Shown: positions 7,254-24,229, counted from the stretch's first letter. The stretch: 24,229 nucleotides of DNA from Alphaproteobacteria bacterium (GCA_017546885.1 JAFYRQ010000027.1:1-24229); one strand, 5' to 3'. The notes: generated by a model not told the origin, from the sequence alone. Translations and numbers: made by a program.

Positions 7254-7285
7254 AAGAATATAATTTAATTGTGGGGGTAATATAT

Positions 7286-7957
7286 ATGGTTCTGTTAATA
7301 CATCATCCGATTTCACCTTTCTCTCGTAAAGCCAGAATTCTTATGGGAGAAAAGCGAATATTGTTTGTATTAAAAGAAGAAGATCCGTGGAATCTGTCAG
7401 AAGAAGCTATGCGCCTTAATCCTGCCGGAGAGTTACCGATATTTGTATTTGACGGCAACGTTATCACCGGAAACAATGCTATCTGTGAATTTTTAGAAGA
7501 AGTTCACAACGACAAAGATGCAAAGCTTATCAACGGCGATATAAGACATCATGCCGAAATTCGTCGATTGACGGAATGGTTTGATTATAAGTTTTATCGA
7601 GAAGTATATCGCAATTTGGTAGCAGAAAAGGTTTTTAAGCGTTTCACGTCCGGCACAGCTCCCGACTCACGAGTATTAAAAAAAGGCATAAACAACTTAA
7701 AATTTCATATGGAATATTTGGACTGGTTATGTGAAAACCGCAAATTTTTGGCAGGTGACAATTTTTCTTTGGCAGATATCAGTGCGGCAGCACAACTTTC
7801 AATCATTGATTATTTAGGAGATATTTCTTGGGATGATTATAAAAATGCCAAATTATGGTATTCAAAAATAAAATCCCGTCCTTCTTTCAAAGAAATATTA
7901 AAAGATAACATCAAGGGAATTTTACCCTCAAAACATTATAGTAACTTGGATTTTTAG
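7286..7957 (+). CDS. fzlA: FtsZ-binding GST-fold protein FzlA
   Basis: HHPISPFSRKAR..MGEKR, LNPAGELP, AEIRRLTEWFDYKF, EKVFKRF, LSIIDYLGDISW, WYSKIKSRPSF and C-terminal HYSNLDF all follow Caulobacter FzlA as recalled. Start placed at ATG 7286 after GGGGG; the alternative is GTG 7271. Confidence 0.88.
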   Translation: MVLLIHHPISPFSRKARILMGEKRILFVLKEEDPWNLSEEAMRLNPAGELPIFVFDGNVITGNNAICEFLEEVHNDKDAKLINGDIRHHAEIRRLTEWFDYKFYREVYRNLVAEKVFKRFTSGTAPDSRVLKKGINNLKFHMEYLDWLCENRKFLAGDNFSLADISAAAQLSIIDYLGDISWDDYKNAKLWYSKIKSRPSFKEILKDNIKGILPSKHYSNLDF

Positions 7958-7959
7958 TC

Positions 7960-8472
7960 ATGAAAAAATATGTTATTTTACTTCTTTGTATTTTGGCACT
8001 AAGCTCTTGCTCAAGCACGGCAGGCGGAGAAAAACGTCCGAGAAGACCTTGGTGGCAAATTCCTCCGTTCAGTTGGTTTGATGCTCATGGTGACGGACAA
8101 GAAATTTTTCACTGGCAACGTCCACGTACCAGTGTTCAGAAATTTGCAACCGACCATAAGTTTTGTATGACGGAGGCAGCACAATTTAAAATGATACCTT
8201 TTGTAAAAAAATGGTTCCATGAAACGATGTATACTGAAGAAGCGAATTTGGAAATAAGAGCCGATTGGAACGGAAAGAGCGGTATATGGGCCAGTTTTGT
8301 GCCTTATCCTGGGGCACAACCTCTTATGGTAAATACCCCAACACCGCAAGATGATGATGATATAAATTATCAAAAATATGTAAATTGCATGGAAGCCAGA
8401 GGCTATGTTACCCGTATCTATGACATACCTGATTCTACAAATTTATATTTGCGTAAAAAGGTTTCTCAATAG
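7960..8472 (+). CDS. Hypothetical lipoprotein
   Basis: MKK plus hydrophobic stretch plus lipobox LSSC. Starts 2 nt after the fzlA stop. Contains D..FCM and Y.NCMEARGY motifs. Confidence 0.8.
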   Translation: MKKYVILLLCILALSSCSSTAGGEKRPRRPWWQIPPFSWFDAHGDGQEIFHWQRPRTSVQKFATDHKFCMTEAAQFKMIPFVKKWFHETMYTEEANLEIRADWNGKSGIWASFVPYPGAQPLMVNTPTPQDDDDINYQKYVNCMEARGYVTRIYDIPDSTNLYLRKKVSQ

Positions 8473-9857
8473 CCACCGCCTATTGACTTATAAAAACTGA
8501 TTATATTTTGATAAATTGCCCCTCGAGCAACAACCAGGTTATTTTGTGCTTCAAGGAGATTTTGCTCGGTTGATAAAATATCACTGAACTCTGATAATCC
8601 TGATTGATATTTAACTTTCATATTATCAAAAACTTCCTGCATATTATTAACCGAGCGTGTCAAAGCAATAACTTTATCATAACCTTTATTTGTCGCTTCA
8701 ACAGAATTACTTATATCTTGAATCGCCCCCAATAACGCATTTTGATATAAATATAAATATTCTTCTTTTATTGATTTGTTTAGCTTAACCTGATTTACTA
8801 ATTGTCCCCAGTGTAAAACAGGAATATTAACCACCGGAGTATATCCGTAAGCAGGATTTTCAGATTTTCCCAAGTCTTTAATCAGGTGAGCTTGCCAACC
8901 TAATATCGCCGTTATACTAACACTCGGAAACATATCGGCCACTGCTTGACCTATATCGGCATTTTTTGAAATCAGCATATTTTCTGCCATTTTAACATCC
9001 GGACGATTTCTTATTACTTCAACCGGAAATTCTCTCAACTTTTGCAAATTAAACGCAAATGTTTTTCTGACAATATTATTTTCGGTAGTATCAAGCTCCG
9101 CAATTTCTTCCGGCAATTTATCAAGCAAAATCGCAATAGCATTTTTATACGCTTTTACCTGATATTCCAAATCCGGCAATAATGATTTAGTGGTTTGAAC
9201 CGCATATTCTGCCTGATTTAAGGCAATATCATCAGCTAAACCTGATTTATACTTATCTCTGACCGTATTATATATTTCTTTTTGCAAACGTAAATTTTGC
9301 TTTGAAATTCGCAACCTTTCTTGTGTTGTACGCAACAAAATATAATTATTCGCTACCTCTGCCGTCATACTCAAAAACACATCATTCAAATTATTTGCCG
9401 CTGCACGATATAATGCTTGAGCACTTTCTCTCAAACGACGTCCTCCGCCCCAAATATCTAATTCCCAAGAAGCATCTAAGCCTAATCGATAATAGCTTGT
9501 TTTGTCACCTAATTCCTCATATTTCGGAGCATACATATAGTTATACTCACCATTAACATCAAGCATCGGAAAATATCGTACTTCACTGATATTCAACGAA
9601 TATCTGGCTTGTCGCAATTTTTCCAAAGCAATTTTTACATTAGGACTGTTTTGTAAAGCTTCGCCTATCAAGCGATTTAATGTTTCATCACCAAAATCCC
9701 GGTACCAAAAAATATTTATCGGATAATTTGAGTAATAATCCACTCCTAAACTGTTCACTAATTGCTGATTATTCCAAAATATCGGGCTTTCATAATCCGG
9801 TCCTACCGAACAGGAAGCCAGTAACAATATTGCCCCGATTTTACCTAACTTCCTCAT
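8466..9857 (-). CDS. RND efflux outer-membrane factor lipoprotein (OprM/NodT family)
   Basis: Lipobox LLASC followed by [25 protein letters not shown]-terminal YKSIGGGY. Confidence 0.93.
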
Positions 9858-12800
9858 TATTATTCTCCTTACTTTTTACCTTTGAGCTATATTCTTTTAT
9901 ACTTTCAAACAATGCGAAATATGCCGGAATAAATATTATTCCTACAAAAGTTGCAGCAATCATGCCGAAAAAAACCGCTGTTCCGATTGCAATTTGACTG
10001 GAAGCCCCGGCTCCACTGGCCACAATCATCGGAAAAACACCTAAAATAAAAGTCAATGCAGTCATTAATACAGCACGAAATCGCTCCCCTGCTCCTTTTA
10101 TCGAAGCCTCAAGTATGCTATCGCCTTTTTCACGATAAGACTTTGTAAACTCTACTATCAATATTGCATTTTTTGCCGCCAAACCTATTAGCATAACCAA
10201 ACCGAGTTGCGCATATATACTCAACGATTGTCCCATCAAATGCAAACCGATTAATGCTCCCATAATTGCAAAAATTGTTGAAAACATAACTGAAAATGCC
10301 AACATCCAACTCTCATACAAAGCAACCAAAAACAAATAACAAAATACTAGAGCCAAAACAATCAAAACGACTACTAAACCGGAAGCTTCAACCTCTTGTA
10401 AACTCAATCCGGTCCATGCTATTTTGTAACTGTCCGGAGATAATGTGGAATCTACTTCTTTCTCAACAGCATCAATAGCTGTTCCGGTACTTACTCCGTT
10501 AGCACTCTGAGCAACAACCGACGCATTTTGATATTGATTGTATCTGTTTATGGTTTTAGGAGACAATGATATTTTGACATCGGCAAAACTTCCTACTTTT
10601 ATCATGGAACCGTTAGCAGAACGAACATAGAGATTTTTTATATCCTCTATACTGCTTCTATAATCAAAATCAGCCTGAACAATAACTTTATTAACCTGTC
10701 CGCTCAAAGTTATATTATTTACATATCTTGAACCTAAATTATTTTGGAGAGTTTCAAACAAATCACTAACCTGAATTTTATATGATTCAAGCTTTGTTCT
10801 GTCTATATCCAAAAACACATGGGGCGCATCGGCAGTATAAACACTGAAAGCATAAGCTAAATCAGGATTTGAGTTTAATACTCCCAAAAACTTTTGCAAA
10901 TTTTCAAACAGTTCATTTGATGTAATATTTTGATTAATTGCCAAAAACTCCATCGTTAAACCGTTACTGTTTCCGATACCGGGAATTGCAGGAGGGGCAA
11001 AAAAGTTTATTTTAGCTCCGTTTATTGATGCAAATTCTTGAGTTAATTTTTCGGTTATTCCTTCAACAGATGTATTTTTTGTTTTTCGCTCATCCCATGG
11101 GTTTAAGCCTATAACCCCCAGAGCAACATTTTCGCCTGCTCCGCCCAACATACTGTATCCGGCAACACCTACAAAATATTTTACACCTTCAACTTTTCTT
11201 ACTTTTTCACCGATTTCTCCTAAAATTTTATTTGTCTGATTTATGCTTGAAGTATTGTCCAGCTGAATATCTCCGAAAATAATCCCTTGGTCTTCTTCAG
11301 GTAAAAATGATGTCGGAGTAAACTTAAATCCTAAACCTAAAATGGCAATAATTACCAACGTTAAAATTGTTGTTATTTTCAACTTTGAAGCAAAAAACTG
11401 AACCGCAATCAAATATTTTTGCTTAAAAAAATCTATCATGTCATCAAATGATTTAAAAAATCCGTGCGGTTGTTGCTGCTTATCATCTCGCAAAAATATT
11501 GCACAAAGAGACGGACTTAATGTCAACGCGTTAAAAGCCGAAAAAACAACAGCAGTTGCTATTGTAACCGCAAATTGCTGATATATTTTTCCGGTAATAC
11601 CGGCCATTAATCCGACGGGAACAAAAATTGATAAAAGAACAAATGTAGTTGCAATAATCGCACTTCCTATCTGTTGCATTGCTTTTATTGAAGCATTATG
11701 CGCATCCATATTTTCATAAGCCATCAAATATTGAACTCGCTCAACAACGATGATTGCATCATCAACAACCAAGCCTATCGCCAAAATCATAGCAAATAAG
11801 GTTAGAATATTTATATCAAATCCTAAAGCATATAAAACGGCAAAAGTAGCTATCAGTGATACAGGTATTGTTATTAGCGGAATTAATGTTGTTTTTGCTT
11901 TTTGTAAAAACAAATAAGTTACAGCTACCACAAGCAAAAACGTAATAAACAATGTTTCTATGATTCCGGCTATTGAGGCTCTCACATATTGAGTTGAATC
12001 ATAAGCAATTTTAAATTCTAAATCTTCGGAAAACGTTTTTGATAAATTTTCAATTTCCTTGGCAACATCATCCATAATATTCAACGAATTTGAGCCCGGA
12101 GTTTGACTTAAAGACATAATAACCGCAGGCGCATTATCAAAACTTGCATTCATAGTATAAGTATCCGCCCCTAGTTCGATTCGGGCTATATCTTCCAAAT
12201 AAACGATTCCACCGTTATCTGATGTTGCGACTACAATCTTTTTGAAATCCTCAACATTATTTAATAGTCCCTTGGCCGACAATGACAATACCATATTTGC
12301 TCCTTGTTTTGCCGGTGCAGACCCTATACTGCCTATTGAAGCCTGAACATTTTGAGAAGCAATAATATTAACTATATCTGTACTATCTAATCCCAATGAT
12401 GATATTTTTTCCGAATTTAGCCATACTCTCATACTATATTGCGGACCGAAAATTTGAACATCACTGACTCCGCTGACACGACCTAAAGGATTTTTCAAAT
12501 TCACATAAGCATAATTACTTAAATATAAATCATCATACGTATTATGAGGAGAACGCAAAACTAACAATGCCAACATATTTGACATTTCGGTAGTAACCGT
12601 AACACCTTCTTGTTGAACAATTGACGGCAGTTGCGACATAACCTGACTTAAGCGATTCTGCACCTTAACCTGAGCAATATCCGGATCGGTACCGACATTA
12701 AAAGTAATGGTGAGTTTATAATTTCCTTCGTCGTTTGATGTAGAACTCATATATAACATATCTTCCACACCATTAATTTGGTTTTCAATCGGAATTGCAA

Positions 12801-12987
12801 CCGTATCAACCACCACTTGAGCGCTTGCTCCCGGATAGGTAGTACTTACAACAATTTGCGGTGGTGTAATTTGAGGATATTGTGAAACAGGTAAAACAAA
12901 AATTGCCAATAAACCGATTAAGACCATAATTATGGACACAACGGCAGCAAAACGCGGTTTGTTTATAAAATATTGAGAAAACATCAT
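9841..12987 (-). CDS. RND efflux permease, HAE1/AcrB family
   Basis: 1048 aa; [15 protein letters not shown], proton-relay motifs [25 protein letters not shown] and R.RAVLMT intact. The start could be the second ATG at 12984. Confidence 0.96.
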
Positions 12988-14114
12988 TTATTCTCCTTCT
13001 CACCGCTTATCTCGTTTATTTTTACCTTTTGTTCGTCGGGTTTTAAGGTAATTTTTTCGGCAACAAGCTTCATTGTCGGCAAAAAATTATTTTCAAGAAC
13101 ATAATTATTGCCCGATTCTGCCAATATTTTCACATTATGTTTTTTTACGATATTTCCCTCGGTTACATAAACGAAACTGTTTTCCGATTGCAACGTAACC
13201 AAATCTTTATTTATCAAAATTCCTTTGTAATCTTTTGCAACCATTACCGTCACATAAGCCTTATCCATGAGCTTTTGTTTCGGATTCTCAAAATCGGCAT
13301 ATACAGCTACGGAATTTGTTGTTCTGTCTATCTGATTATCCGAATACTTAAACACTCCCTCATATTCATAAACATTACCGTTTGCCAGTTTTAATCTGAT
13401 TCGTTCATCATCAAACATTTTTTCTTTGGCATTTTCTTCCAAATAATCTTTATCGCTGATTGAAAAAACAACTCGCATCGGATTGGTCTGAATAATGCTG
13501 AAAAGAACATTTTGCGGAGAAATATAATCCCCCTTTGTCAAGGCAACATTTCCGACAATACCGTTAATTGTCGAAGTAACAACCGTATATCCTAAATTTA
13601 CTTCTGCTTGTTTTACATTAGCTTTTGCCTGATGCAAAACCGCTTGCGATGCCAAAAAAGACGATTTTGCATTATCTGTTTCTGTTTGAGAAACCGCTTT
13701 TAAACCGGCATTTTTTATTCTTTCATAATAATTTCTGGCATATTCAAAATCGGCTGTCGCCTTAGAAAGAGAAGCATTAGCAGCATCAAGAGCAGCCTGA
13801 TATTGCTCTTGTTCCATAACCACTAATTGTTGTCCTGCGCTAACTTTTTGTCCGCCTTCTACCAAAACTTCACTTACAAAACCGTTTATATAAGGTTGAA
13901 CACTAACATCATTTATCGGAGTCACATAGCCGATATATTGCTTTTCTACCGCAACATTTTTTTCAACTATCGGGACAACATTAATTTCTGCTTCCGACAT
14001 TTCTTTTTCGGGCAAACTAATTTTATGATGTAAATGCCATCCTAACCAAGCCGCAAAAATTAAAAAAACAAGAGCTATAATCCAAGCATGCGCGTATCCT
14101 TTTTTATCAACCAT
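12984..14114 (-). CDS. RND efflux periplasmic adaptor (membrane fusion protein, AcrA-like)
   Basis: N-terminal TM anchor, VQPYINGFV...V..GQ lipoyl half-motif, helical hairpin, [11 protein letters not shown]. Its stop overlaps the permease start (ATGA). Confidence 0.93.
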
Positions 14115-14250
14115 TTTGCCCTCTTCGTAAAAATTAAACTTATGATTTAAATAATTTGTGTTATTAACAATTCAAGCCGTAATTTTAATCAAATTTTTAG
14201 ACATTACATGTAAGTTATAATGAATAAAAAAGTTCCGGGGAGCGAATCAG

Positions 14251-15288
14251 ATGTTATATAGTTTTCTAAATGCCTATACTGCCGACTTTTTGGCATTTTT
14301 TACTTCATTAATAATAATGCTTTTATGCGGCAAAAAATTTATTAAATTAATGCGTGCATGGCAACATGAAGGGCAGCCGATAAGAGAGTGCGGACCTAAA
14401 AGCCATTTGGAGACAAAAAAAGGAACTCCTACAATGGGAGGAATTTTGATTTTAGCTTCAATTATAATATCAACTTTGCTCTTTGCCAATCTCAAACAAG
14501 GAATGACCTGGGTATGTTTAGGTGTTATGATTGTTTTCGGAATTGCCGGCTTTATTGATGACTATGTAAAAGTAAAAAAACATACTCCTAATGCAATGAC
14601 CGCAAAAGTTAAACTGCTAATTCAATTTGCCGTTGCTGCCGGAGTAGCATATTTTGCCACAACACAATATGAAGCCCCTATGAACTTTAGCATTATTGTT
14701 CCCTATCTCGACTTCCCGATTAATTTGTGGTGGTTTTACATACCGTTTGCCATGGTTGTAATTGCCGGTGCTTCCAATGCCGTAAACTTAAGTGACGGAC
14801 TAGACGGATTGGCAGCAGGCTTGCTTATTCCTCCTTTTATGGTTTTAGGATTTATTGCTCTTTTAATCGGCTTTGAATATTACGATTTTATGCCATTCCC
14901 GAGTTTAAGCATCATTTGTTCTGCCGTTATCGGAGCTTGTTTGGGATTTTTGTGGTTCAACTGCTCTCCTGCTCAAATTTTTATGGGCGATACCGGTTCT
15001 TTGTCTCTCGGTGCCCTTTTGGGAACGATTGCTATTTTGGCTAAACAAGATTTATTATTGGCAATTATAGGTTTTGTTTTTGTTGCAGAAGCTTTGTCGG
15101 TAATGATACAGGTTTTTTGGTACAAACGCACCAAAACAAGAGTATTTTTAATGGCTCCCATTCATCACCACTTTGAACAAAAAGGGTGGAAAGAAACAAC
15201 TGTGGTAATACGTTTTTGGGTTATCGGTTGGTTGGTTGCCGGCCTCGGAATGCTCGCAGTTGTAAGCCCTACCGCATGGGGAAACTAA
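14251..15288 (+). CDS. mraY: Phospho-N-acetylmuramoyl-pentapeptide transferase
   Basis: KKGTPTMGG, GFIDDYVK, NAVNLSDGLDGLA, FMGDTGSL, APIHHHFEQKGW. Confidence 0.97.
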   Translation: MLYSFLNAYTADFLAFFTSLIIMLLCGKKFIKLMRAWQHEGQPIRECGPKSHLETKKGTPTMGGILILASIIISTLLFANLKQGMTWVCLGVMIVFGIAGFIDDYVKVKKHTPNAMTAKVKLLIQFAVAAGVAYFATTQYEAPMNFSIIVPYLDFPINLWWFYIPFAMVVIAGASNAVNLSDGLDGLAAGLLIPPFMVLGFIALLIGFEYYDFMPFPSLSIICSAVIGACLGFLWFNCSPAQIFMGDTGSLSLGALLGTIAILAKQDLLLAIIGFVFVAEALSVMIQVFWYKRTKTRVFLMAPIHHHFEQKGWKETTVVIRFWVIGWLVAGLGMLAVVSPTAWGN

Positions 15289-16416
15289 ATGCTGATATCT
15301 CGCGGTAAAAATAACTTTTTTACAAATTGGTGGTGGACTGTTGATAAAATATTACTCGGTTGTATTATCGCGTTAATTACCATAGGGGTAATTTTATGTT
15401 TTTCAGCCTCCCCGGCTGTTGCCGAAAGAGAAGGTTTCGGAAGTTATCACTTTATAAAACGCCACCTGATATTTGCTCCTGTTGCACTAGGAATTGTTAT
15501 TTCTTTATCTATGCTAAAACTTAAAACCATCCGCAGAATTGCTCTGTTAGGATATTTAGTTGCCATGATATTGGTCGGGATGACTTTTTTCCTAGGAGAA
15601 GCGAACAGAGGTGCATCTCGTTGGATTCCTTTTTTTGGTTTTACTTTACAACCTTCAGAATTTGTAAAACCATTCTTTATCATTATGGCCGCTTGGCTGT
15701 TTAACGGACAAAAACAACAACCTGATTTCCCCGGAAATTTCTTGTCAATCGGACTGTTTATAATTACGGCAAGCGCGATACTTTTTCAACCTGATATCGG
15801 AATGACTACCGTTGTATCCGTCATCTGGGCCGCTCAATTAGTGTTAAGCGGAATTCCGTTATTTTGGATAATTATATTAGGTATATTGGCTATTATCGGA
15901 GTAATAATCGGATATTTTACTTTTCCGCATTTTCAGATGCGCATACTTCAATTTTTCGCCTCAGGAAATGATACACCATATCAAATTAAACGTGCAAATG
16001 AAGCTTTTGCAAGCAGCAATTTTTTTGGCAGAGGTCCCGGAGAAGGAATAGCACGCTCTCATATCCCAGATGCCCATACAGACTTTATTTATGCCGTAAT
16101 TGCCGAAGAATACGGATTTTTTATCTGTCTTGCCGTTGTCCTTTTATACGCAACAATAGTTATTCGCTCGCTCATATTATCATGCAGAGAAAACAATTTT
16201 TTCATTGTTTTATCTGTTTCGGGACTTGCTCTGTCTTTCGGTATTCAAGCAGTAATTAATATGGCATCAACTCTGCAATTAATGCCAACTAAAGGTATGA
16301 CCTTGCCGTTTATATCCTATGGCGGTTCTTCAATATTGGCATCTGCAATAGGTATGGGAATGCTTCTGGCAATCACTCGTAAAAACTCTCATGCGGAGGA
16401 TAAAGATAATGTCTGA
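15289..16416 (+). CDS. ftsW: SEDS peptidoglycan glycosyltransferase FtsW
   Basis: GASRWI, QPSEFVKP, QPDIG, PDAHTDFI, EEYG, PTKGMTLPFISYGGSS; located between mraY and murG. Confidence 0.96.
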   Translation: MLISRGKNNFFTNWWWTVDKILLGCIIALITIGVILCFSASPAVAEREGFGSYHFIKRHLIFAPVALGIVISLSMLKLKTIRRIALLGYLVAMILVGMTFFLGEANRGASRWIPFFGFTLQPSEFVKPFFIIMAAWLFNGQKQQPDFPGNFLSIGLFIITASAILFQPDIGMTTVVSVIWAAQLVLSGIPLFWIIILGILAIIGVIIGYFTFPHFQMRILQFFASGNDTPYQIKRANEAFASSNFFGRGPGEGIARSHIPDAHTDFIYAVIAEEYGFFICLAVVLLYATIVIRSLILSCRENNFFIVLSVSGLALSFGIQAVINMASTLQLMPTKGMTLPFISYGGSSILASAIGMGMLLAITRKNSHAEDKDNV

Positions 16417-17515
16417 CAGCAAAAAAAAACTCATAATTCTAACTGCCGGTGGCACCGGAGGACATGTTTATCCTGCGGATGCACTTGCACAAGAACTTGA
16501 AAAACGCAACTATAATTTAATGTTGGTTACGGACCAAAGAGGACTGAACAACTATCACGGCAAACTGAGCGAAATTGAAAACAAAGCCGTATTAAGCGGT
16601 GCTTTAGTCGGTAAAAATATTTGGTTTAAGATAAAAAGTTTAATTAAAGTTTCTTTAGGTATTTTACAATCCGTTTATATTATTATCAAATATAAGCCCG
16701 AGTGTGTTGTAGGTTTCGGCGGATATGCTTCATTTCCTTGTGCAGTTGCTGCCATCCTGACAGGAACAGATTTAATAATTCACGAACAAAACTCGGTTAT
16801 GAGCCGAACAAATCGCTTTTTAGCTAAATATGCTTCTAAAATAGCCACAAGCTTTCCTAAAACAAAATATGCTCCGCAAGGAAATCAAACTGTTTTAACC
16901 GGTATGCCGGTAAGAACAACAATATCTGCACTTTTTGATAAACAATACAAACAACCTGAACAAAACGGAAAATTTAATCTGTTGGTTCTGGGCGGTTCAC
17001 AAGGAGCAAAAATCTTCTCGGAAGTCATACCGCAAGCAATTAAATCTCTTGATGAAAAAATTCAGCAAAATATTCATATCACGCAACAGTGCAGAAAAGA
17101 TGACATTGAGCTGTTGCAAAAAGAATATTCGGATGCAAAATGTTCTGCCGAAATATCAAATTTCTTCAAAAATATGCCGGAATTATATGATACGAACCAC
17201 ATTATCATATCTCGCGCCGGTGCTTCTTCCGTTTGTGAAATTGCAGCTGCGGGAATTCCGTCAATTTTAGTTCCGTTACCGACGGCAGCAGACGATCATC
17301 AAACATTTAATGCTTCCGAATTTAAGAATAAAAATGGCGGCATGGTAATCGCTCAAAAAGATTTCACAGCCGAAAAACTGCAAGAAATATTGGAAAAATT
17401 TATAAATAATCCGACAGAATTGGAAATAATGGCAAGAAACACCAAAAAATTTGCAATCATTGATGCCGATAAACGTCTTGCCGATGTTGTAGAAACAATT
17501 ATAAAGAGAGGTTAA
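16409..17515 (+). CDS. murG: Lipid II N-acetylglucosaminyltransferase MurG
   Basis: GGTGGHVYP, GFGGY, HEQN, GGSQGA, RAGASS, DDHQ..NA. Start reassigned to ATG 16409 behind GGAGGA at 16395-16400. Confidence 0.97.
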   Translation: MSDSKKKLIILTAGGTGGHVYPADALAQELEKRNYNLMLVTDQRGLNNYHGKLSEIENKAVLSGALVGKNIWFKIKSLIKVSLGILQSVYIIIKYKPECVVGFGGYASFPCAVAAILTGTDLIIHEQNSVMSRTNRFLAKYASKIATSFPKTKYAPQGNQTVLTGMPVRTTISALFDKQYKQPEQNGKFNLLVLGGSQGAKIFSEVIPQAIKSLDEKIQQNIHITQQCRKDDIELLQKEYSDAKCSAEISNFFKNMPELYDTNHIIISRAGASSVCEIAAAGIPSILVPLPTAADDHQTFNASEFKNKNGGMVIAQKDFTAEKLQEILEKFINNPTELEIMARNTKKFAIIDADKRLADVVETIIKRG

Positions 17516-17516
17516 T

Positions 17517-18437
17517 ATGTTTAATTTTTTCAAAAAGAAACCTATGCTTAAACTTCTCCCGAAAGTTAAAGGAAAATACTTAAATAATGTCAATTTAAGC
17601 AAACATACGTGGTTTGGTGTCGGTGGTCCTGCCGAAGTTATGTATATTCCGTCAGATGAAAATGATTTGAGCTATTTTTTAAAAAACTGCCCTAAAAATA
17701 TTCCTACTTTTGTAATCGGTGGCGGTTCAAATTTGCTGGTGCGTGACGGTGGCATTCCCGGTGTGGTAATCAAACTCGATTCGCCATCATTCAAAAAGAT
17801 AACCTTAGGTGATAACGAAATAACCTGCGGAGCCGGATTAAAAAATATTGAACTGAAAAAACACTTGATTGCCAATGAATTGGGCGGACTGGAATTTTTA
17901 TGTTCAATTCCGGGAGTAATCGGCGGGTCGGTAAAAACAAATGCCGGATGTTTCGGAAAAGAAGTTAAAGATGTTATAACCTCTGCTCAGATTATAAACG
18001 GAGACGGCGAAATTAAAACCATCGGTGTAAAAGATTTAGAGCTTGATTACAGAACAAGTTGTTTTCCTGATGATTGGATTATCTTATCAATCAGCTTTAA
18101 AACAACTAAAGACAGTAAGGAAAATATTGAAAAAACTTTAGCAGAGCAAAAAGCATATCGACAAGCCAATCAGCCATATAACCAAAAAACTGCCGGTTCA
18201 ACTTTCAAAAATCCCAAAGGATTGCGAGCATGGGAATTAATAAAAAAATCCGAATGCGATTCGTTGGTTGTCGGCGGAGCAAAAGTTTCTGATAAACATT
18301 GCAATTTTTTGATTAACACCGGCAATGCTACCGCAAAAGATATTGAAACCTTGGGGGAAACCATAATATCTCAGGTTCGTCAAAAAACATATATCACACT
18401 TGAATGGGAAGTTAAAAGAGTAGGCATAGATAAATAG
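17517..18437 (+). CDS. murB: UDP-N-acetylenolpyruvoylglucosamine reductase
   Basis: TWFGVGGPAE, GGGSNLLV, IPGVIGG...NAG, YRTS, GSTFKNP, HCNFLIN, LEWEV. Confidence 0.96.
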   Translation: MFNFFKKKPMLKLLPKVKGKYLNNVNLSKHTWFGVGGPAEVMYIPSDENDLSYFLKNCPKNIPTFVIGGGSNLLVRDGGIPGVVIKLDSPSFKKITLGDNEITCGAGLKNIELKKHLIANELGGLEFLCSIPGVIGGSVKTNAGCFGKEVKDVITSAQIINGDGEIKTIGVKDLELDYRTSCFPDDWIILSISFKTTKDSKENIEKTLAEQKAYRQANQPYNQKTAGSTFKNPKGLRAWELIKKSECDSLVVGGAKVSDKHCNFLINTGNATAKDIETLGETIISQVRQKTYITLEWEVKRVGIDK

Positions 18438-19322
18438 ATGTGGTTTTGGAAAAAAAACATAAAACCGGAAATTCCGGCTCAAAAAGTCGATGAGAAATAT
18501 AAGGTATATTTACCAAAATTATGGCCTTATCGTTTCATCGGCAATTTGTGTCTTTTGTGGCTCATCGCTGCCGTTTCTTTTGGTATATATGTTGCAAAAA
18601 CTAATTTTGTAGAACAAAAACTCGATACATTTTCCGACTACTTTATCGATATAACCTCTAAGATTGGTTTTACCGTTGATGACGTGATTATTCAAGGGCG
18701 AGACAAGACTCCTTTGGAAGATATAAAAAACATCATAAATTTAGCCAATAACAACAATATCTTTAACATTGATATTCATCAGATAAAACAAGATATTTTG
18801 CTGCTTCCGTGGGTAAAAACGGTTGTAATTGAACGTTCATATTTTCCAAATAATATAAATATAAAAATAACCGAAAAAGAAATAAGCGCAATTTGGCAAA
18901 CAAACAACAGTTTTTATCCGGTTGACAAAGATGGTTTTGTTATAAAAACCAACCATATTCCCGTTGTTCCTACACTCATTATTACGGGTAAAGGCGCTCC
19001 TGAAAATATCAACAAGCTGTTGCCGATAATACAAGAAGACGATTCGCTTTACAAACGCATCAAGGCTGCCTCATATATTTCTGAACGACGTTGGGATATT
19101 ATTTTGGACGATATTGAAAATGGTGTGACCATAAGACTTCCGGCCGAAAAGACAAAAAATGCTTGGAAAAAATTGATAAAATTGAGCAAAACGCAAGGAC
19201 TTCTTAAGCGTAAATTAACCATCATTGATTTAAGATTCGGGAACAAAGTTGTAGTGACTCCGTTAAAGCTCTCAAAAGAAGAGCGATTGCGTCGTCGAAA
19301 CATTAAAGAACACAAACTATAA
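18438..19322 (+). CDS. ftsQ: Cell division protein FtsQ/DivIB
   Basis: Single TM segment, POTRA-like region (LPWVKTVVIERSYFPNNINIKITE), RRWDIIL, IDLR; directly upstream of ftsA. Confidence 0.92.
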   Translation: MWFWKKNIKPEIPAQKVDEKYKVYLPKLWPYRFIGNLCLLWLIAAVSFGIYVAKTNFVEQKLDTFSDYFIDITSKIGFTVDDVIIQGRDKTPLEDIKNIINLANNNNIFNIDIHQIKQDILLLPWVKTVVIERSYFPNNINIKITEKEISAIWQTNNSFYPVDKDGFVIKTNHIPVVPTLIITGKGAPENINKLLPIIQEDDSLYKRIKAASYISERRWDIILDDIENGVTIRLPAEKTKNAWKKLIKLSKTQGLLKRKLTIIDLRFGNKVVVTPLKLSKEERLRRRNIKEHKL

Positions 19323-20608
19323 TGGGTGCAAAAACAATGAATTCCTTTAGCCGACATACATTAATTGCTGCTTTAGACATAGGCTCATCTAAGGTATGTT
19401 GTGTTATTGCACGTGTGAACGGCAGAGATAAGAAAATATCTATTGTCGGATATGGCTACAATGCCGCAAAAGGAATTCAAAACGGTGTAATTACAAATTT
19501 CAATCAGGCAACCTACTCTATTTGTGATGCACTCGAAGCCGCTGAACAAATGGCAAATGAACGTGTAGAAAGAGTTATTGTCAACATATCAAGCAGCAAA
19601 ACCAAAAGTGTTATCAAACGCGCTTCGATTCCTCTTAATAAAACTAAGCCGGTTACCGAAATTGAGGCTAAAAAAGCTAAAGATAAAGCAACATACAAAT
19701 TAAACATTGAGGACAATGAACTCATCCACTGCTTAACCACAGGGTATCGTCTCGATTTTGGCGAAGAAATCAGTGATCCGCGTAATATGTACGGTGAAAA
19801 CTTATCTGCCGATGTTTTGCTCGGCATGGTTCCGGCAATTACATATCGCAACACTCAAACCGTTCTCGATAATGCACATTTAGAGATTGCCGGAAAGGTT
19901 TTATCTCCTTATGCATCGGGGCTTGCTTGTCTTGTTGAAGATGAAAAAGAGTTGGGAGCAACAATCATTGATATAGGCGGTGGCACGACCAGTATAGCTA
20001 CATTTATGCACGGTCATCCGGTGTATTTCAGTTCTATCGGTGTCGGCGGAGACAATGTAACAAAAGATATTGCTTGGGGTTTGACCACGTCTTTTGCTCA
20101 TGCCGAAAGATTGAAAACCTTACATGGTTGCGCATTCTTAAATTCTCAAGATGCAAATGAAACAATTAATGTATATCCGGTCGGCGAAGAAGACGACAGC
20201 TTGATAAAATATATACCAAAGTCAAACTTAATCGAAATCATTGCCCCTCGTGTTGAAGAGATTTTTGAACTTGTAAATCAAAAACTTGATGAAGCCGGAT
20301 TAAAAGAAGTAAACTCTCACCGCATCGTATTAACCGGAGGCGGAAGTCAATTATTGGGAATAAGAGAAGTTGCATCGCTTATCCTTGACAAACAAGTTCG
20401 TTTAGGTCGTCCGAGAAATATCGGAAACACTCTGGACATATCCGAATTTGAGGTTCTGCAATATCCGTCATTTTCAACGGTTATCGGGTTGCTTTTATTC
20501 GTCTTAAATCATCCCGAAATTAAACCTACAAAAATCATTTCTAAACCGGTTAATCCGGACGGAAGTCGCTTCAGCAAAATTCTTAGTTGGCTAAAGAATA
20601 ATTTTTAA
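19322..20608 (+). CDS. ftsA: Cell division protein FtsA
   Basis: ALDIGSSKV, IDIGGGTT, GGDNVTKDI, AERLK, VLTGGGSQL, C-terminal amphipathic helix. An alternative start is ATG 19337. Confidence 0.97.
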   Translation: MGAKTMNSFSRHTLIAALDIGSSKVCCVIARVNGRDKKISIVGYGYNAAKGIQNGVITNFNQATYSICDALEAAEQMANERVERVIVNISSSKTKSVIKRASIPLNKTKPVTEIEAKKAKDKATYKLNIEDNELIHCLTTGYRLDFGEEISDPRNMYGENLSADVLLGMVPAITYRNTQTVLDNAHLEIAGKVLSPYASGLACLVEDEKELGATIIDIGGGTTSIATFMHGHPVYFSSIGVGGDNVTKDIAWGLTTSFAHAERLKTLHGCAFLNSQDANETINVYPVGEEDDSLIKYIPKSNLIEIIAPRVEEIFELVNQKLDEAGLKEVNSHRIVLTGGGSQLLGIREVASLILDKQVRLGRPRNIGNTLDISEFEVLQYPSFSTVIGLLLFVLNHPEIKPTKIISKPVNPDGSRFSKILSWLKNNF

Positions 20609-20689
20609 TTTTAGTAACTAAACATTAATCACTTTTTCGTAGTATGAGAGCAAATATTTTTTGACCATTTAAACTTGGGAGTTAAACTT

Positions 20690-22393
20690 ATGCCCGTAAA
20701 ATTAGCAGTACCAGAAACTAATATGATAACATTAAAACCGCGTATTTCTGTTGTCGGTGTCGGTGGTGGCGGCGGAAATGCCGTTAACAATATGATTACA
20801 AAAACCTTGGAAGGTGTTGATTTTATTGTTGCCAATACAGATGCACAAGCCTTGGCAAATTCAAAATGCACACGCAGAATCCAACTCGGTGTGGAAACTA
20901 CTCGTGGTTTAGGTGCCGGCGCATGCCCTGAAGTAGGAAAAGCCGCTGCAGAAGAAGCAAGAGCAGAAATAGAGAAAGAACTCGAAGGCGCCAATATGGT
21001 ATTCATCACAGCCGGAATGGGCGGTGGTACAGGCTCAGGGGCAGCACCGGTTATTGCAAAAATTGCAAAAGAAAAAGGTATTTTGACTATCGGTGTAATT
21101 ACCAAGCCGTTTCAGTTTGAAGGTAAAAAGCGCGCGCAAATTGCCGAAAAAGCCGTTGAAGAATTTATTTCTTCCGTTGACAGCATTATCATTATCCCTA
21201 ACCAAAACCTTTTCCGCATTGCTGATAAAAACACCACTTTAGCCGATGCTTTTGTTATGGCCGATAATGTATTATATTCCGGTGTTCGCTCTATTACAGA
21301 CCTTATGACAATGCCCGGACTTATCAATTTGGACTTTGCAGATGTTAAAAACATTATGTCCGATAAAGGTAAATCAATTATGGGTACCGGCGAAGCAGAA
21401 GGTGACAATCGTGCTATCAAAGCTGCGGAAGAAGCTCTTTCCAATCCGTTGTTAGACTACAACAATATGAGCGGAGCTAAAGGTGTATTGATTAATATTA
21501 CCGGCGGTCCGGATATTACATTATTTGAAGTTGACGAAGCTGCCAACCGCATTAAAGAAGAAGTTGATGAAGAAGCAAATATCATCTTCGGTTCAAGCTT
21601 TGATGAATCATTAACCGGAAAAATCAGAGTTTCTATTGTTGCTACCGGTATCGGCGAAGCCAAAAACGTGCAAACAAAAACGGCTCCGATTACCAATTAT
21701 TTAGAAGAAAGCTACAATAGCGGTAGCTCAATTCCTAATATTCCGAGCGATGAAATTGATTCTAATTTAGCAAAATTTGCCGCAACAATCGTTCCGGAAA
21801 GCATTGAAGAAGAACCGAAAGAAGTTGTTGAAGAATCAACTTATGAAGAACCTTCTCCGATTGAAGACATAATTCCGGAAGAAGAAATCAAAGTTGCAAA
21901 TGAACCTATTGCAATTATTGACGATTTGCTCGGTGAAACGGAAGAAGAAGCTAATGACAATGGTTTTTCTTCGGTTATGAACGATATGCCTCAAGCATCT
22001 TCATTGTTCAATGCTGTTATGAACAGAACAGAACGCAATGATATTGATGCTCAACTTGAAAGTGCATTATCTTCTCAAGGTAATATTTTCAGCCCATCTA
22101 ACTCTCCTCGTTTAATGGAAGAAGAAGAACCTGAATTGTTCGCTACACCGCAAATTTTTGCAACTCCGACAAGACAAGAAAGAAATGAAGAATTAATTGT
22201 TCCCGAAGATAGAGAATACAAACCTACATTTCTTGATAGAGTAACCGGTCGTTCTATCTTGCTCAATCGTAACAAGAAAAAAGCAGAAAAAGAACAACAA
22301 CACTATCAGGAACCGGTAACTCCGAGCCTTGCATCAGGTGGTGATTATGCTGAAAACGACTTGAGCATTCCATCGTTTTTACGCAGAAAATAA
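20690..22393 (+). CDS. ftsZ: Cell division protein FtsZ with long acidic C-terminal linker
   Basis: [32 protein letters not shown], terminal [11 protein letters not shown]. Start reassigned to ATG 20690 behind GGGAG at 20677-20681. Confidence 0.98.
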
Positions 22394-22409: not shown

Positions 22410-22444
22410 GTAAAACCGCTCAAACGAGCGGTTTTACTTATTTC
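22410..22444 (+). terminator. Rho-independent terminator after ftsZ
   Basis: Perfect 12-bp stem GTAAAACCGCTC (22410-22421), loop AAAC, GAGCGGTTTTAC (22426-22437), followed by TTATTTC. The A/T arms could allow bidirectional use. Confidence 0.88.
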
Positions 22445-22493: not shown

Positions 22494-22529
22494 ATATACA
22501 TATTGAAAAACTTTACGGAGAAACATCTC

Positions 22530-24229
22530 ATGAAAAAATTTTCTTATGCGATTATGTTCGCAACTTTACCTATTTATTATGTAAACGCAGTTGAAGTTGA
22601 TACATCAGCAGAGTTTAGAAATGCCCTAACAAATGGTGACAATATCATACTCGGTGCGGATATAACCGTTAGTGATACGGAAAATGGAATTACGTGGAAT
22701 ACTCCTGTTTTCAACAGCGGCAGCAGTAACAATAACATTACCATTAACGGTAACGGCCATACGGTATATGGCGGAGATATTGAAACAAACATGTTTCGAA
22801 ATTGGAAAACCATTGATTCAATAGAAAATATAACCTTTGACGGATTTTATAATAACCCTGAAGTATCCGCAAGAGGCGATGATGAATTGGGCGCAGTCAT
22901 TATGAACGTTGGAAAAATCAATAAAATTGATGCTAATTTTTATAATAATACAGCTTATCATGGAGCTGCAATATTCAATGGTAGCGGATATGAAATCGGA
23001 AGCATAAACGGAAACTTCATAGGAAATAAAACCATAGGAGCAACATGGGAACACGGACACGAAGCTTCAGGGGCATCAATCCACAATCAAGGGATTATTA
23101 AAAATATCACCGGATACTTTAAAAATAATAACGGTTGGATGCACGGCACAATTTGGAACTATGGAACAATTGAAAATATAACTGCAACTTTCGAAGAAAA
23201 TTATCGCTCTGCAGTAGGAGGAAACGGGGGCTCTGTTACTATTACCAACTCAGAATTTATAAAAAATACAACATGGCAAGGAAGACAAGGAGAAGGACAA
23301 GCAGGTGCTGCAATTCATTCTTATGGCACAAACTTTACTATTAAAGAAACCGTATTCACGGAAAACTCTGCTTGGTGGACAGGCGGAGCGGTTTATAGTA
23401 CCAGAGGAAGCTTAGACATATCTGACAGCACATTTACAAAAAACTCCGCAGGTGAAGACGGCGGTGCTATCTATAAAACAGGTGGCACGGGAACAATTTC
23501 AAATACAACCTTTACATCAAACAGCGGAAGAAATGGTGGTGCAATTTACAACACCACAAATACAACAATAACCGACAGCAGTTTTAACAGCAATAATTCG
23601 TCTGTTAATGGTGGCGCTATATATAACGGCGGCACATTAACCATAAGTAATTCCGAAATCATCGGCAATAAAGCTTCTGCCGGCGGTGCAATTTATGCTA
23701 CGGCAAATTCTTCAAGCACATTAACTAATGTAGATATAAAAAATAATACATCGAGTAATAATCTAGCAGGAGCAGTTCACTCTTTATCAAATATATCTAT
23801 GCAAGCAGACGGAAAAAACATATCTGTCAGTGGCAATAATGCAAATACAAATCAAACTGCTATTTATATGGCAACTGCAGATACAACTTTGTACTTAAAG
23901 AACTTAAATGATGGTAACTTCATAATGGACGACAAAGTGGATGGCATTGAGTATAATATAGAAATCAGCGGTGATTCAAGCGGATACACCCGTTTCAATA
24001 ACGAAGTAAACAATCTGAAAACACTTAAAATGTCAGATGGAGGACAGCTATTTGTTGCTAAAGACAATGTTTTTGAAATGAAATCATATATAGCTTCAGC
24101 TACAAACGGAAATATTCCTACCCTATTAATGGATATTGAGCTCAATACCGACGGAACATTAAATAATGGACTTTTCAATATAGAAGGCGACATAAAAGGA
24201 ACAACGAATATTATCCTCAATTCATTAAA
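22530..24229 (+). CDS. 3'-truncated Pmp-like beta-helical surface protein, probable autotransporter passenger
   Basis: Manual translation is open from ATG 22530 to the window end (566 full codons). Signal peptide MKKFSYAIMFATLPIYYVNA, repeated FxxN and GGA(I/V) motifs, N/G/T/S-rich. Absent from the ORF track, presumably because no stop lies in the window. The beta-barrel is not visible. Confidence 0.85.
   Translation, partial: MKKFSYAIMFATLPIYYVNAVEVDTSAEFRNALTNGDNIILGADITVSDTENGITWNTPVFNSGSSNNNITINGNGHTVYGGDIETNMFRNWKTIDSIENITFDGFYNNPEVSARGDDELGAVIMNVGKINKIDANFYNNTAYHGAAIFNGSGYEIGSINGNFIGNKTIGATWEHGHEASGASIHNQGIIKNITGYFKNNNGWMHGTIWNYGTIENITATFEENYRSAVGGNGGSVTITNSEFIKNTTWQGRQGEGQAGAAIHSYGTNFTIKETVFTENSAWWTGGAVYSTRGSLDISDSTFTKNSAGEDGGAIYKTGGTGTISNTTFTSNSGRNGGAIYNTTNTTITDSSFNSNNSSVNGGAIYNGGTLTISNSEIIGNKASAGGAIYATANSSSTLTNVDIKNNTSSNNLAGAVHSLSNISMQADGKNISVSGNNANTNQTAIYMATADTTLYLKNLNDGNFIMDDKVDGIEYNIEISGDSSGYTRFNNEVNNLKTLKMSDGGQLFVAKDNVFEMKSYIASATNGNIPTLLMDIELNTDGTLNNGLFNIEGDIKGTTNIILNSL
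22938..23783 (+). repeat. Protein-level FxxN / GGA(I/V) beta-helix repeats
   Basis: Nine FxxN motifs (FYNN, FIGN, FKNN, FEEN, FIKN, FTEN, FTKN, FTSN, FNSN) and five GGA(I/V)Y motifs, plus degenerate GAAI/GASI/AGAV copies. Confidence 0.85.

Follow-up and report, generated by a model that had tools for sequence, protein, structure and literature searches.

The dcw cluster, named for division and cell wall, is among the most conserved bacterial gene orders. In the window, a stretch of 24,229 nucleotides (nt) that makes up the entire contig C39 of an alphaproteobacterial metagenome-assembled genome (MAG; 624 kb in 70 contigs, 70% complete), this cluster is reduced to mraY-ftsW-murG-murB-ftsQ-ftsA-ftsZ and lacks all five genes for the ATP-dependent stem-peptide ligases (murC, murD, murE, murF and ddl). 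We find that this ligase-free block is old and fixed throughout a family of uncultured gut and rumen Alphaproteobacteria with small genomes (about 1.0–2.0 Mb), and that the ligases have not been lost, but are scattered in the genome as single genes. The MurC step appears to be the exception, since comparison of the proteins indicates that canonical murC was replaced family-wide, not moved, by a divergent paralog that we name MurC2, after a MurC-like clade separate from canonical MurC. The reading that we favour, with a probability of roughly 0.8, is that the block represents a conserved core left by a dcw cluster that fragmented, with its ligases scattered by stepwise takeover and decay and MurC2 replacing MurC.

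The ligase-free block and its conservation

Genes were called from six-frame open reading frames (ORFs) and from NCBIfam and Pfam profile scans of the window. The seven genes of the block are co-directional and contiguous, with junctions that leave no room for the ligases: mraY abuts ftsW (TAA/ATG, 0 nt) with murD absent between them, murG and murB are 1 nt apart without murC, and murB abuts ftsQ (TAG/ATG, 0 nt) without ddl. In addition, ftsW and murG overlap by 26 nt (or by 8 nt from the alternative murG start), ftsQ and ftsA share 1 nt (TAATG), and ftsA and ftsZ are spaced by 66 nt. Upstream of mraY, murE, murF, mraZ, rsmH, ftsL and ftsI are all absent, and an RND efflux operon, also the neighbour in the closest relative (L146), sits at the canonical ftsI-murE-murF site; this operon and a 136-nt spacer indicate that the block begins at mraY. 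Both junctions and scans agree with the initial annotation of this DNA, which had described seamless mraY/ftsW, murG/murB and murB/ftsQ junctions and no upstream murE or murF. Searched by tblastn with ligases from E. coli, with canonical alphaproteobacterial ones and with those specific to the lineage, the window showed no relic of a ligase (all E > 0.07), and the block proteins are all of normal length, so that none is a fusion. The seven genes probably form one tightly packed, translationally coupled operon, which ends in a strong terminator-like hairpin behind ftsZ.

Compared with the canonical proteobacterial cluster (mraZ-rsmH-ftsL-ftsI-murE-murF-mraY-murD-ftsW-murG-murC-[murB]-ddl-ftsQ-ftsA-ftsZ-lpxC), the block keeps the strand, the relative order of its seven genes and ftsQ-ftsA-ftsZ at the 3' end, but none of the five ligase genes is interleaved at its canonical position, and mraZ-rsmH-ftsL-ftsI, normally directly upstream, and lpxC are detached. 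The order ftsI-murE-murF-mraY-murD-ftsW-murG-murC-murB-ddl-ftsQ-ftsA-...-lpxC is seen in two other alphaproteobacterial families (L057 and L058), and the reference order to which the initial annotation had compared the block is therefore correct.

The 6.36-kb block was matched in 28 of 28 genomes of the genus (1.0–2.0 Mb), full-length and collinear in 14 of them, with DNA identities of 93%, 86% and 85% in the three closest relatives and 66–70% in the others. Comparison of dcw order across more distant relatives returned a ligase-free block in five further genera of the family as well, collinear in g21, g27 and g29, and the genes flanking it vary from genus to genus. In genera g18 (L174, genome G122) and g25 (L175, genome G137), murG also lies outside the block, which there runs mraY-ftsW-murB-ftsQ-ftsA-ftsZ with gaps of 4–15 nt. 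Fragmented as the source MAG is, a chimeric or collapsed contig could have created seamless junctions during assembly or binning. However, assemblies made independently for 28 species of the genus show the same block, as do the five other genera, and independent metagenome runs contain 44–88% of its words, leaving such an artefact with practically no credibility.

Scattered ligases and an intermediate cluster in the sister family

Profile searches for the ligases recovered them as scattered single genes, MurC being represented by MurC2. In the MAG itself, murF (C10:760-2097; TIGR01143, 355 bits, cut-off 289) adjoins nrdR and nusB, and ddl (contig C32; NF002378, 355 bits, cut-off 243) adjoins miaA-mreB; MurI and AmpG are encoded on C26 and Alr on C29, C13 ends with mraZ-rsmH and a divergently oriented lpxC, and C49 starts with a fragment of ftsI. 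Searches of the MAG contigs for MurC-type, MurD and MurE proteins gave cross-matches to MurF only. In the closest relative (G005, a 1.6-Mb genome that is 99% complete and whose block has 93% DNA identity), MurC2, MurD, MurE and MurF are encoded on four separate contigs, MurE scoring 566 bits (NF001124, cut-off 476), MurD 277 (cut-off 212) and MurF 351 (cut-off 289).

Between these two genomes, MurD, MurE, MurF and Ddl all pass their curated cut-offs, are of normal length and carry no fusions. MurE of the closest relative passes the equivalog model for meso-diaminopimelate (mDAP) ligases and has the DNPR motif, which, together with ordinary MurD, MurF and Ddl, gives no sign of an unusual residue at stem positions 2–5. 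Three of the options raised by the initial annotation thus fall away: block relocation, since the ligases are singletons spread over different contigs; a fused ligase, of which none was observed; and an atypical stem peptide, at which neither MurE, MurF nor Ddl hints. Its preference for relocation or replacement over loss held up, given MurF, Ddl, Alr and MurI in the MAG and a MurC-like protein, MurD, MurE and MurF in the closest relative.

The same enzymes recur across the genus. MurD (17 of 18 genomes) and MurF (18 of 18) are single-copy and above cut-off, MurE-type matches occur in 17 of 18, and MurA was found in all three relatives examined. One of these, G010 (1.6 Mb), has three full-length MurA copies (C1:26680-27954, C17:11580-12854 and C10:15645-16916; 556–563 bits), as compared to one copy each in the other two and in a sister-family genome. 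In both G005 and G010, an inverted lpxC adjoins mraZ-rsmH-ftsL-ftsI, with mreB-miaA-ddl about 3.4 kb downstream, and this segment is what survives of the old cluster's 5' part. Precursor synthesis is intact, scattered single genes encoding MurD, MurE (of mDAP type), MurF, Ddl, Alr, MurI and MurA.

MurC2, MurD and MurE are missing from the MAG through assembly gaps. The regions of 9–13 kb around murC2, murD and murE in the closest relative have no counterpart in the MAG, and about 11 of the 51.5 kb sampled around its MurC2, MurD, MurE and MurF genes has one, the MurF locus being syntenic between the two genomes at 93% identity. Four gut metagenome runs (X1–X4) that hold 69–88% of the 31-mers of the block also contain the entire murC2-ldcA region of G005, on contigs of 0.4–3 kb with approximately 92–95% identity and a depth of 5–14. 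As this is the identity expected for the ortholog of the source species, we ascribe these contigs to it; they are shorter than the shortest contig of the MAG (3.3 kb), which explains their absence from the bin. Because the closest relative has the three genes, whole regions are missing and X1–X4 hold murC2-ldcA, their absence from the MAG is uninformative. At the end of MAG contig C30 (G000:C30:4796-4953) we noted an inverted self-duplicate (compare L027:9322-9478), probably an assembly artefact, about 2.4 kb from the position of murE in G005.

The absence of MurC, MurD and MurE from the MAG had at first led us to consider a loss of ligases, which we rejected on comparing 624 kb with 1.6 Mb and finding the syntenic regions missing. 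In its full form, this explanation, also listed in the initial annotation, holds that stem-peptide synthesis is truly lost and that muropeptides or peptides are scavenged from the gut community, with MurC2, LdcA and AmpG as the sole entry route. AmpG, LdcA and a ligase in an Mpl-like context are indeed present, MurC2 lacks the arginines that bind L-Ala (see below), and the MAG has no MurC2, MurD or MurE. Yet intact, single-copy MurD, MurE, MurF, Ddl, Alr, MurI and MurA across complete genomes of the genus contradict it, the closest relative's genome is more than twice as large as the MAG, which is missing whole regions rather than single genes, and the murC2 locus is found in source-type metagenomes; we judge scavenging to be highly improbable.

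How the ligases may have left the cluster is suggested by the sister family, represented by one genome (G019, 79% complete). Its cluster (L052) reads mraZ-rsmH-ftsL?-ftsI-murE-mraY-ftsW-murG-murC-murB-ftsQ-ftsA-ftsZ-lpxC, so that murF, murD and ddl are outside, with junctions of 16–17 nt, and murE and canonical murC are inside. It resembles the window's genus in these three departures, in a murF that lies by nrdR/nusB-sized genes and in the presence of a MurC2-LdcA pair, and differs in keeping mraZ-rsmH-ftsI-murE, canonical murC and an lpxC after ftsZ, as well as in a MurF relic fused to MurE. The MurE ORF of G019 is 748 residues long (L052:4651-6897, on G019:C39): residues 22–460 comprise the three Mur-ligase domains, and the last ~250 residues align to residues 4–127 of canonical MurF (29% over 124 residues, E 5e-21). 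This MurF-like tail is in frame and at the canonical murF position, its P-loop is destroyed, and the intact murF resides on another contig. The tail would be either what remains of the displaced murF or a domain that has been co-opted. A dead MurF relic at the cluster and an intact murF elsewhere suggest that a second copy took over and that the cluster copy decayed in place, and the 'replacement' option of the initial annotation thereby gains direct support for two genes, murF (through this relic) and murC (through the paralog).

We propose that fragmentation proceeded in stages. In a first, corresponding to the state of the sister family, murF, murD and ddl would have left while murE and canonical murC stayed; in a second, that of the window's family, murE would have left too and canonical murC would have gone. 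A copy outside the cluster would take over, whereupon the cluster copy would decay and be deleted, a mechanism modelled on one fossil, and deletion of relics in a small genome along with selection for co-expression of the remaining genes could have produced the seamless junctions. In several members of the genus murF lies 9–40 kb from the block, and one genome has the block, murD and a MurC2 copy together in a 70-kb stretch, suggesting erosion through local rearrangement.

The departures are not evenly spread over gene classes. Among the twelve genes that run from murE to ftsZ, 5 of 5 ligase genes are out and 7 of 7 others are in, a pattern that a random choice of five among twelve genes would give once in 792 (or in 7 of 924 cases with murG counted as a sixth departure), both figures being post hoc and the departures not independent, as murE and murF may have left with the 5' break. 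The bias toward ligases seen by the initial annotation is thus real, and it recurs at two stages of the lineage, although the accompanying claim that removals hit one functional class stands only in part: the ligases are all out, but mraZ-rsmH-ftsL-ftsI and lpxC split off too, and murG is out in two genera. It is plausible that soluble ligases are readily replaced by paralogs or foreign copies, and likewise plausible that membrane-step and divisome genes gain from co-expression.

These observations also bear on a simpler explanation, in which vertically inherited ligases were scattered neutrally in heavily rearranged genomes and the pattern of gene classes is functionally meaningless. The variable flanks of the block, the detachment of lpxC and mraZ-ftsI, the departure of murG in g18 and g25 and the local rearrangement suggested by the murF positions all fit it, and MurE and Ddl, with 51–52% and 44% identity to other alphaproteobacterial copies, look vertically inherited. 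It does not account for five ligases out against seven other genes kept, for a murC replaced by a paralog rather than moved, or for the dead remnant of murF still in its original place, which shows that two copies once coexisted, and we therefore regard neutral scattering as unlikely, if deserving of serious attention. The initial annotation had named ordinary, scattered ligases as the finding that would speak against its inference, and this largely describes MurD, MurE, MurF and Ddl, though not MurC. For MurD and MurF, identity is 22–38% to canonical alphaproteobacterial proteins and 41–52% to the copies of the sister family, and their ESM Atlas neighbours include some Bacillota-labelled clusters, a mixture that does not separate divergence from transfer.

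The MurC2 clade and the MurC step

Canonical alphaproteobacterial MurC was found in 0 of 110 genomes of the family (17 genera, completeness at least 85%), and true Mpl is likewise absent from the family, matches to TIGR01081 scoring 136–153 bits (cut-off 388.7). In many genera one MurC2 is the only MurC-family gene. MurC2 of the closest relative scores 301.9 bits on the MurC model TIGR01082 (cut-off 335.1) and 150 bits on the Mpl model (cut-off 389); TIGR01082 is the best NCBIfam match of the genus's MurC2, and scores on it are under the cut-off across the family (264–325 bits). With the genus's MurC2 as query, phmmer gave 396–1011 bits within its own group, 132–179 for canonical MurCs and 103 for E. 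coli Mpl. In a maximum-likelihood tree MurC2 forms a clade with 99/99 support on a stem of 2.46 substitutions per site, and this clade takes in second copies from two genomes, one of the sister family (G019) and one of another family (G021), that each also carry a canonical, dcw-embedded MurC (531–541 bits).

Relatives of MurC2 with 36–75% identity, from a scan of one genome per species, fall into three groups: (i) gut MAGs; (ii) free-living Alphaproteobacteria (Brevundimonas, Ponticaulis, Erythrobacter, Sphingomonas, Hyphococcus and Micavibrio); and (iii) some Latescibacterota, Kiritimatiellia and Gemmatimonadota. Were MurC2 instead a fast-evolving, relocated ortholog of canonical MurC, its best NCBIfam match to the MurC model (302 bits, below 335) and its closest match to MurC structures would be expected, and small-genome lineages do evolve fast. 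This is hard to reconcile with G019 and G021, whose canonical MurC is accompanied by a MurC2 that groups with that of the window's genus at 99/99, or with the 36–41% identity that MurC2 of Brevundimonas, Sphingomonas, Erythrobacter and others shares with it when canonical MurCs of the same class reach only 140–179 bits against it. We consider this alternative very unlikely and prefer replacement by a coexisting paralog.

Two lineages deserve separate mention. Genus g29 is the one genus of the family with a MurC that passes the cut-off (356–374 bits), in a murD-murC pair outside the dcw cluster (L148:6207-8916 in G140, where MurC scores 374 bits and is 31% identical to the canonical MurC of the sister family), and it also carries a MurC2-LdcA pair; this MurC may be a foreign acquisition. 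G047 (genus g17, 99% complete, 1.3 Mb) gave no MurC-family match at E 1e-60, and may either encode a ligase that has diverged further or no longer perform the MurC step.

Among 80 loci, which range from gut MAGs to Brevundimonas, Ponticaulis, Latescibacterota and Kiritimatiellia, ldcA adjoins murC2 in the majority, the S66 LD-carboxypeptidase (LdcA-like, Peptidase_S66) being encoded immediately downstream or divergently upstream; murC2 itself is never located within the dcw cluster. Akin to MurC (TIGR01082; structures 1P3D and 2F00), MurC2 has the three Mur-ligase domains PF01225, PF08245 and PF02875, and its P-loop GKT, Mg-binding Glu and His and adenine-binding Asn are invariant across an alignment of MurC, MurC2 and Mpl. 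It departs from MurC, besides its score, separate clade and gene location, at the amino-acid site. In Haemophilus influenzae MurC the incoming amino acid is bound by His376, Arg377 and Arg380, with Tyr346 and His348 (PMC3060825); the canonical QPH-[R/K]-[Y/F]-[T/S]-R reads QPHG[FY]xP[LMT][RK]xM in most MurC2 and Q[SP]HS[AP]FSAxNTG in the genus's MurC2, and DDYGH of MurC becomes DDFAH, as in Mpl. The His is retained, both Arg are substituted and Tyr is changed to Phe, so that MurC2 does not have the residue set of canonical MurC.

Gene context and DDFAH link MurC2 to the Mpl (TIGR01081; 3HN7) and LdcA of gammaproteobacterial murein recycling; with Peptidase_S66 genes adjacent in most loci and the muropeptide permease AmpG encoded as well, MurC2 may act with both in recycling. 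The Mpl score of MurC2 and its lack of both the FFDKRS insertion and the EPRSNT motif set it apart from Mpl. On our reading MurC2 would be a MurC-derived ligase tied to LdcA-dependent recycling, and in this family it would also make UDP-N-acetylmuramate-L-Ala (UDP-MurNAc-L-Ala), a product that it must supply given that MurD and MurE are kept and no other MurC-family candidate exists. In the history that we propose, MurC2 began as an Mpl-like murein-peptide recycling ligase beside ldcA, coexisting with canonical MurC as seen in G019 and G021, and would now also provide the UDP-MurNAc:L-Ala ligase step as the only MurC-family enzyme, which sets this step apart from plain relocation. A murC(ts) mutant is reported to be complemented when Mpl is overexpressed (PMC3060825), a precedent for a recycling ligase taking over the MurC step. 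A bolder version, which we offer tentatively and with less than even confidence, would make MurC2 an unrecognised Mpl-type ligase family, found in Alphaproteobacteria and some further phyla and in every case paired with LdcA, that here displaced the essential MurC as a single dual-entry enzyme loading UDP-MurNAc with either L-Ala, for de novo synthesis, or recycled tri- or tetrapeptide, with the dcw ligases evicted singly by outside copies and leaving fossils.

Four species (G003, G011, G013 and G016; L032–L039) have two MurC2 copies: the one at the conserved syntenic site (copy A) no longer has an ldcA beside it, and the other (copy B), located elsewhere, retains an ldcA with 35–37% identity to that of G005. 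A simple division of labour, with a genus-specific 'A' clade (Q[SP]HS[AP]FS) in the MurC role and ldcA-linked 'B' copies in recycling, was rejected, as many other genera lack canonical MurC and have a single MurC2, which carries the ancestral motif and is accompanied by ldcA. Directly upstream of murC2, and in the same direction, lies a gene of ~280–300 residues that is conserved across the family (L026:5078-5962); its 294-residue product has no Pfam or NCBIfam match, and the other genes flanking murC2 gave no recycling-related match in these two databases.

Several points weigh against the picture drawn here. Regarding the ligases, MurF and Ddl are the only ones present in the MAG itself; the ascription of the X1–X4 contigs to the source organism has the identity level as its sole basis; pairwise identities and family-model scores of MurD and MurF fit relocated orthologs as well as foreign replacements; the ligase bias was recognised after the fact, and murG is also out in two genera; and displacement followed by decay is drawn from a single relic in a single 79%-complete MAG. 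As to MurC2, it is without the two arginines thought to hold the carboxylate of L-Ala, it matches MurC structures (131–156 bits) better than Mpl structures (61–69 bits) in the PDB, and it lacks the insertion that carries the Mpl-specific (S/T)AFFDKRSK motif (defined in PMC3060825). With MurC structures the closer ones and FFDKRS missing, the Mpl-like interpretation draws mainly on gene context.

Features of the window and wider meaning

The features of the window are collected in Table 1. In a scan for promoter consensus sequences upstream of mraY, sites were no more numerous than in shuffled sequence. An FzlA-like FtsZ-binding protein (7271-7957; NF050814, 253 bits, cut-off 300) is encoded some 6.3 kb upstream of the block, in a neighbourhood also found in G005, and past the ftsZ terminator a large ORF with polymorphic-outer-membrane-protein repeats (22503-24227; TIGR01376) runs off the end of the contig.

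Table 1. Annotated features of the 24,229-nt window
Feature	Positions	Strand	Basis
RND efflux operon, divergent from mraY	8466-14114	-	ORFs and profile scans
RND outer-membrane factor	8466-9857	-	
RND pump	9841-12987	-	
RND adaptor	12984-14114	-	
AT-rich intergenic region, 136 nt, RND adaptor gene to mraY; presumed promoter region	14115-14250	+	Sequence read
mraY (phospho-MurNAc-pentapeptide transferase), first gene of block	14251-15288	+	TIGR00445, 331.7 bits (cut-off 192)
ftsW (SEDS glycosyltransferase)	15289-16416	+	TIGR02614, 316.6 bits (cut-off 337.5); RodA model, 218 bits
murG (other possible start ATG 16409)	16391-17515	+	TIGR01133, 315.6 bits (cut-off 250)
murB	17517-18437	+	NF010480, 356.5 bits (cut-off 259)
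ftsQ	18438-19322	+	Pfam POTRA_1 and FtsQ_DivIB_C; weak NF008043 match
ftsA	19322-20608	+	TIGR01174, 315.3 bits
ftsZ, 572 residues, long-linker alphaproteobacterial type, last gene of block	20675-22393	+	TIGR00065, 403.4 bits
Intrinsic-terminator-like hairpin, 12-bp stem then T-rich tail, closing the operon	22410-22437	+	Hairpin 3' of ftsZ

A literature search, which did not cover the main phylogenomic survey of dcw clusters, found no published description of the ligase-free arrangement or of MurC2. To the question from which this work set out, the answer is a sobering one: there is no loss, and no exotic stem peptide. In rod-shaped Gram-negatives, the conserved order of the mur ligase genes has been linked to assembly of a Mur complex (PMC10214165); unlike in those bacteria, the ligase genes of the window's genus are unlinked although mreB is present. 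A family of Gram-negative, MreB-bearing bacteria with membrane-step and division genes kept tightly together and all five ligases unlinked is thus a natural test, indicating that co-location of the ligase genes is dispensable. Furthermore, that canonical MurC is missing throughout the family points to a candidate ligase for recycling in Alphaproteobacteria. As the model species Caulobacter and Agrobacterium are reported to be without Mpl and LdcA (PMC13046382, PMC9790009), a MurC2-LdcA pair in other Alphaproteobacteria would be of interest to those who study recycling. Finally, the missing canonical MurC suggests that an essential step targeted by antibiotics can pass to a paralog with a rebuilt amino-acid pocket.

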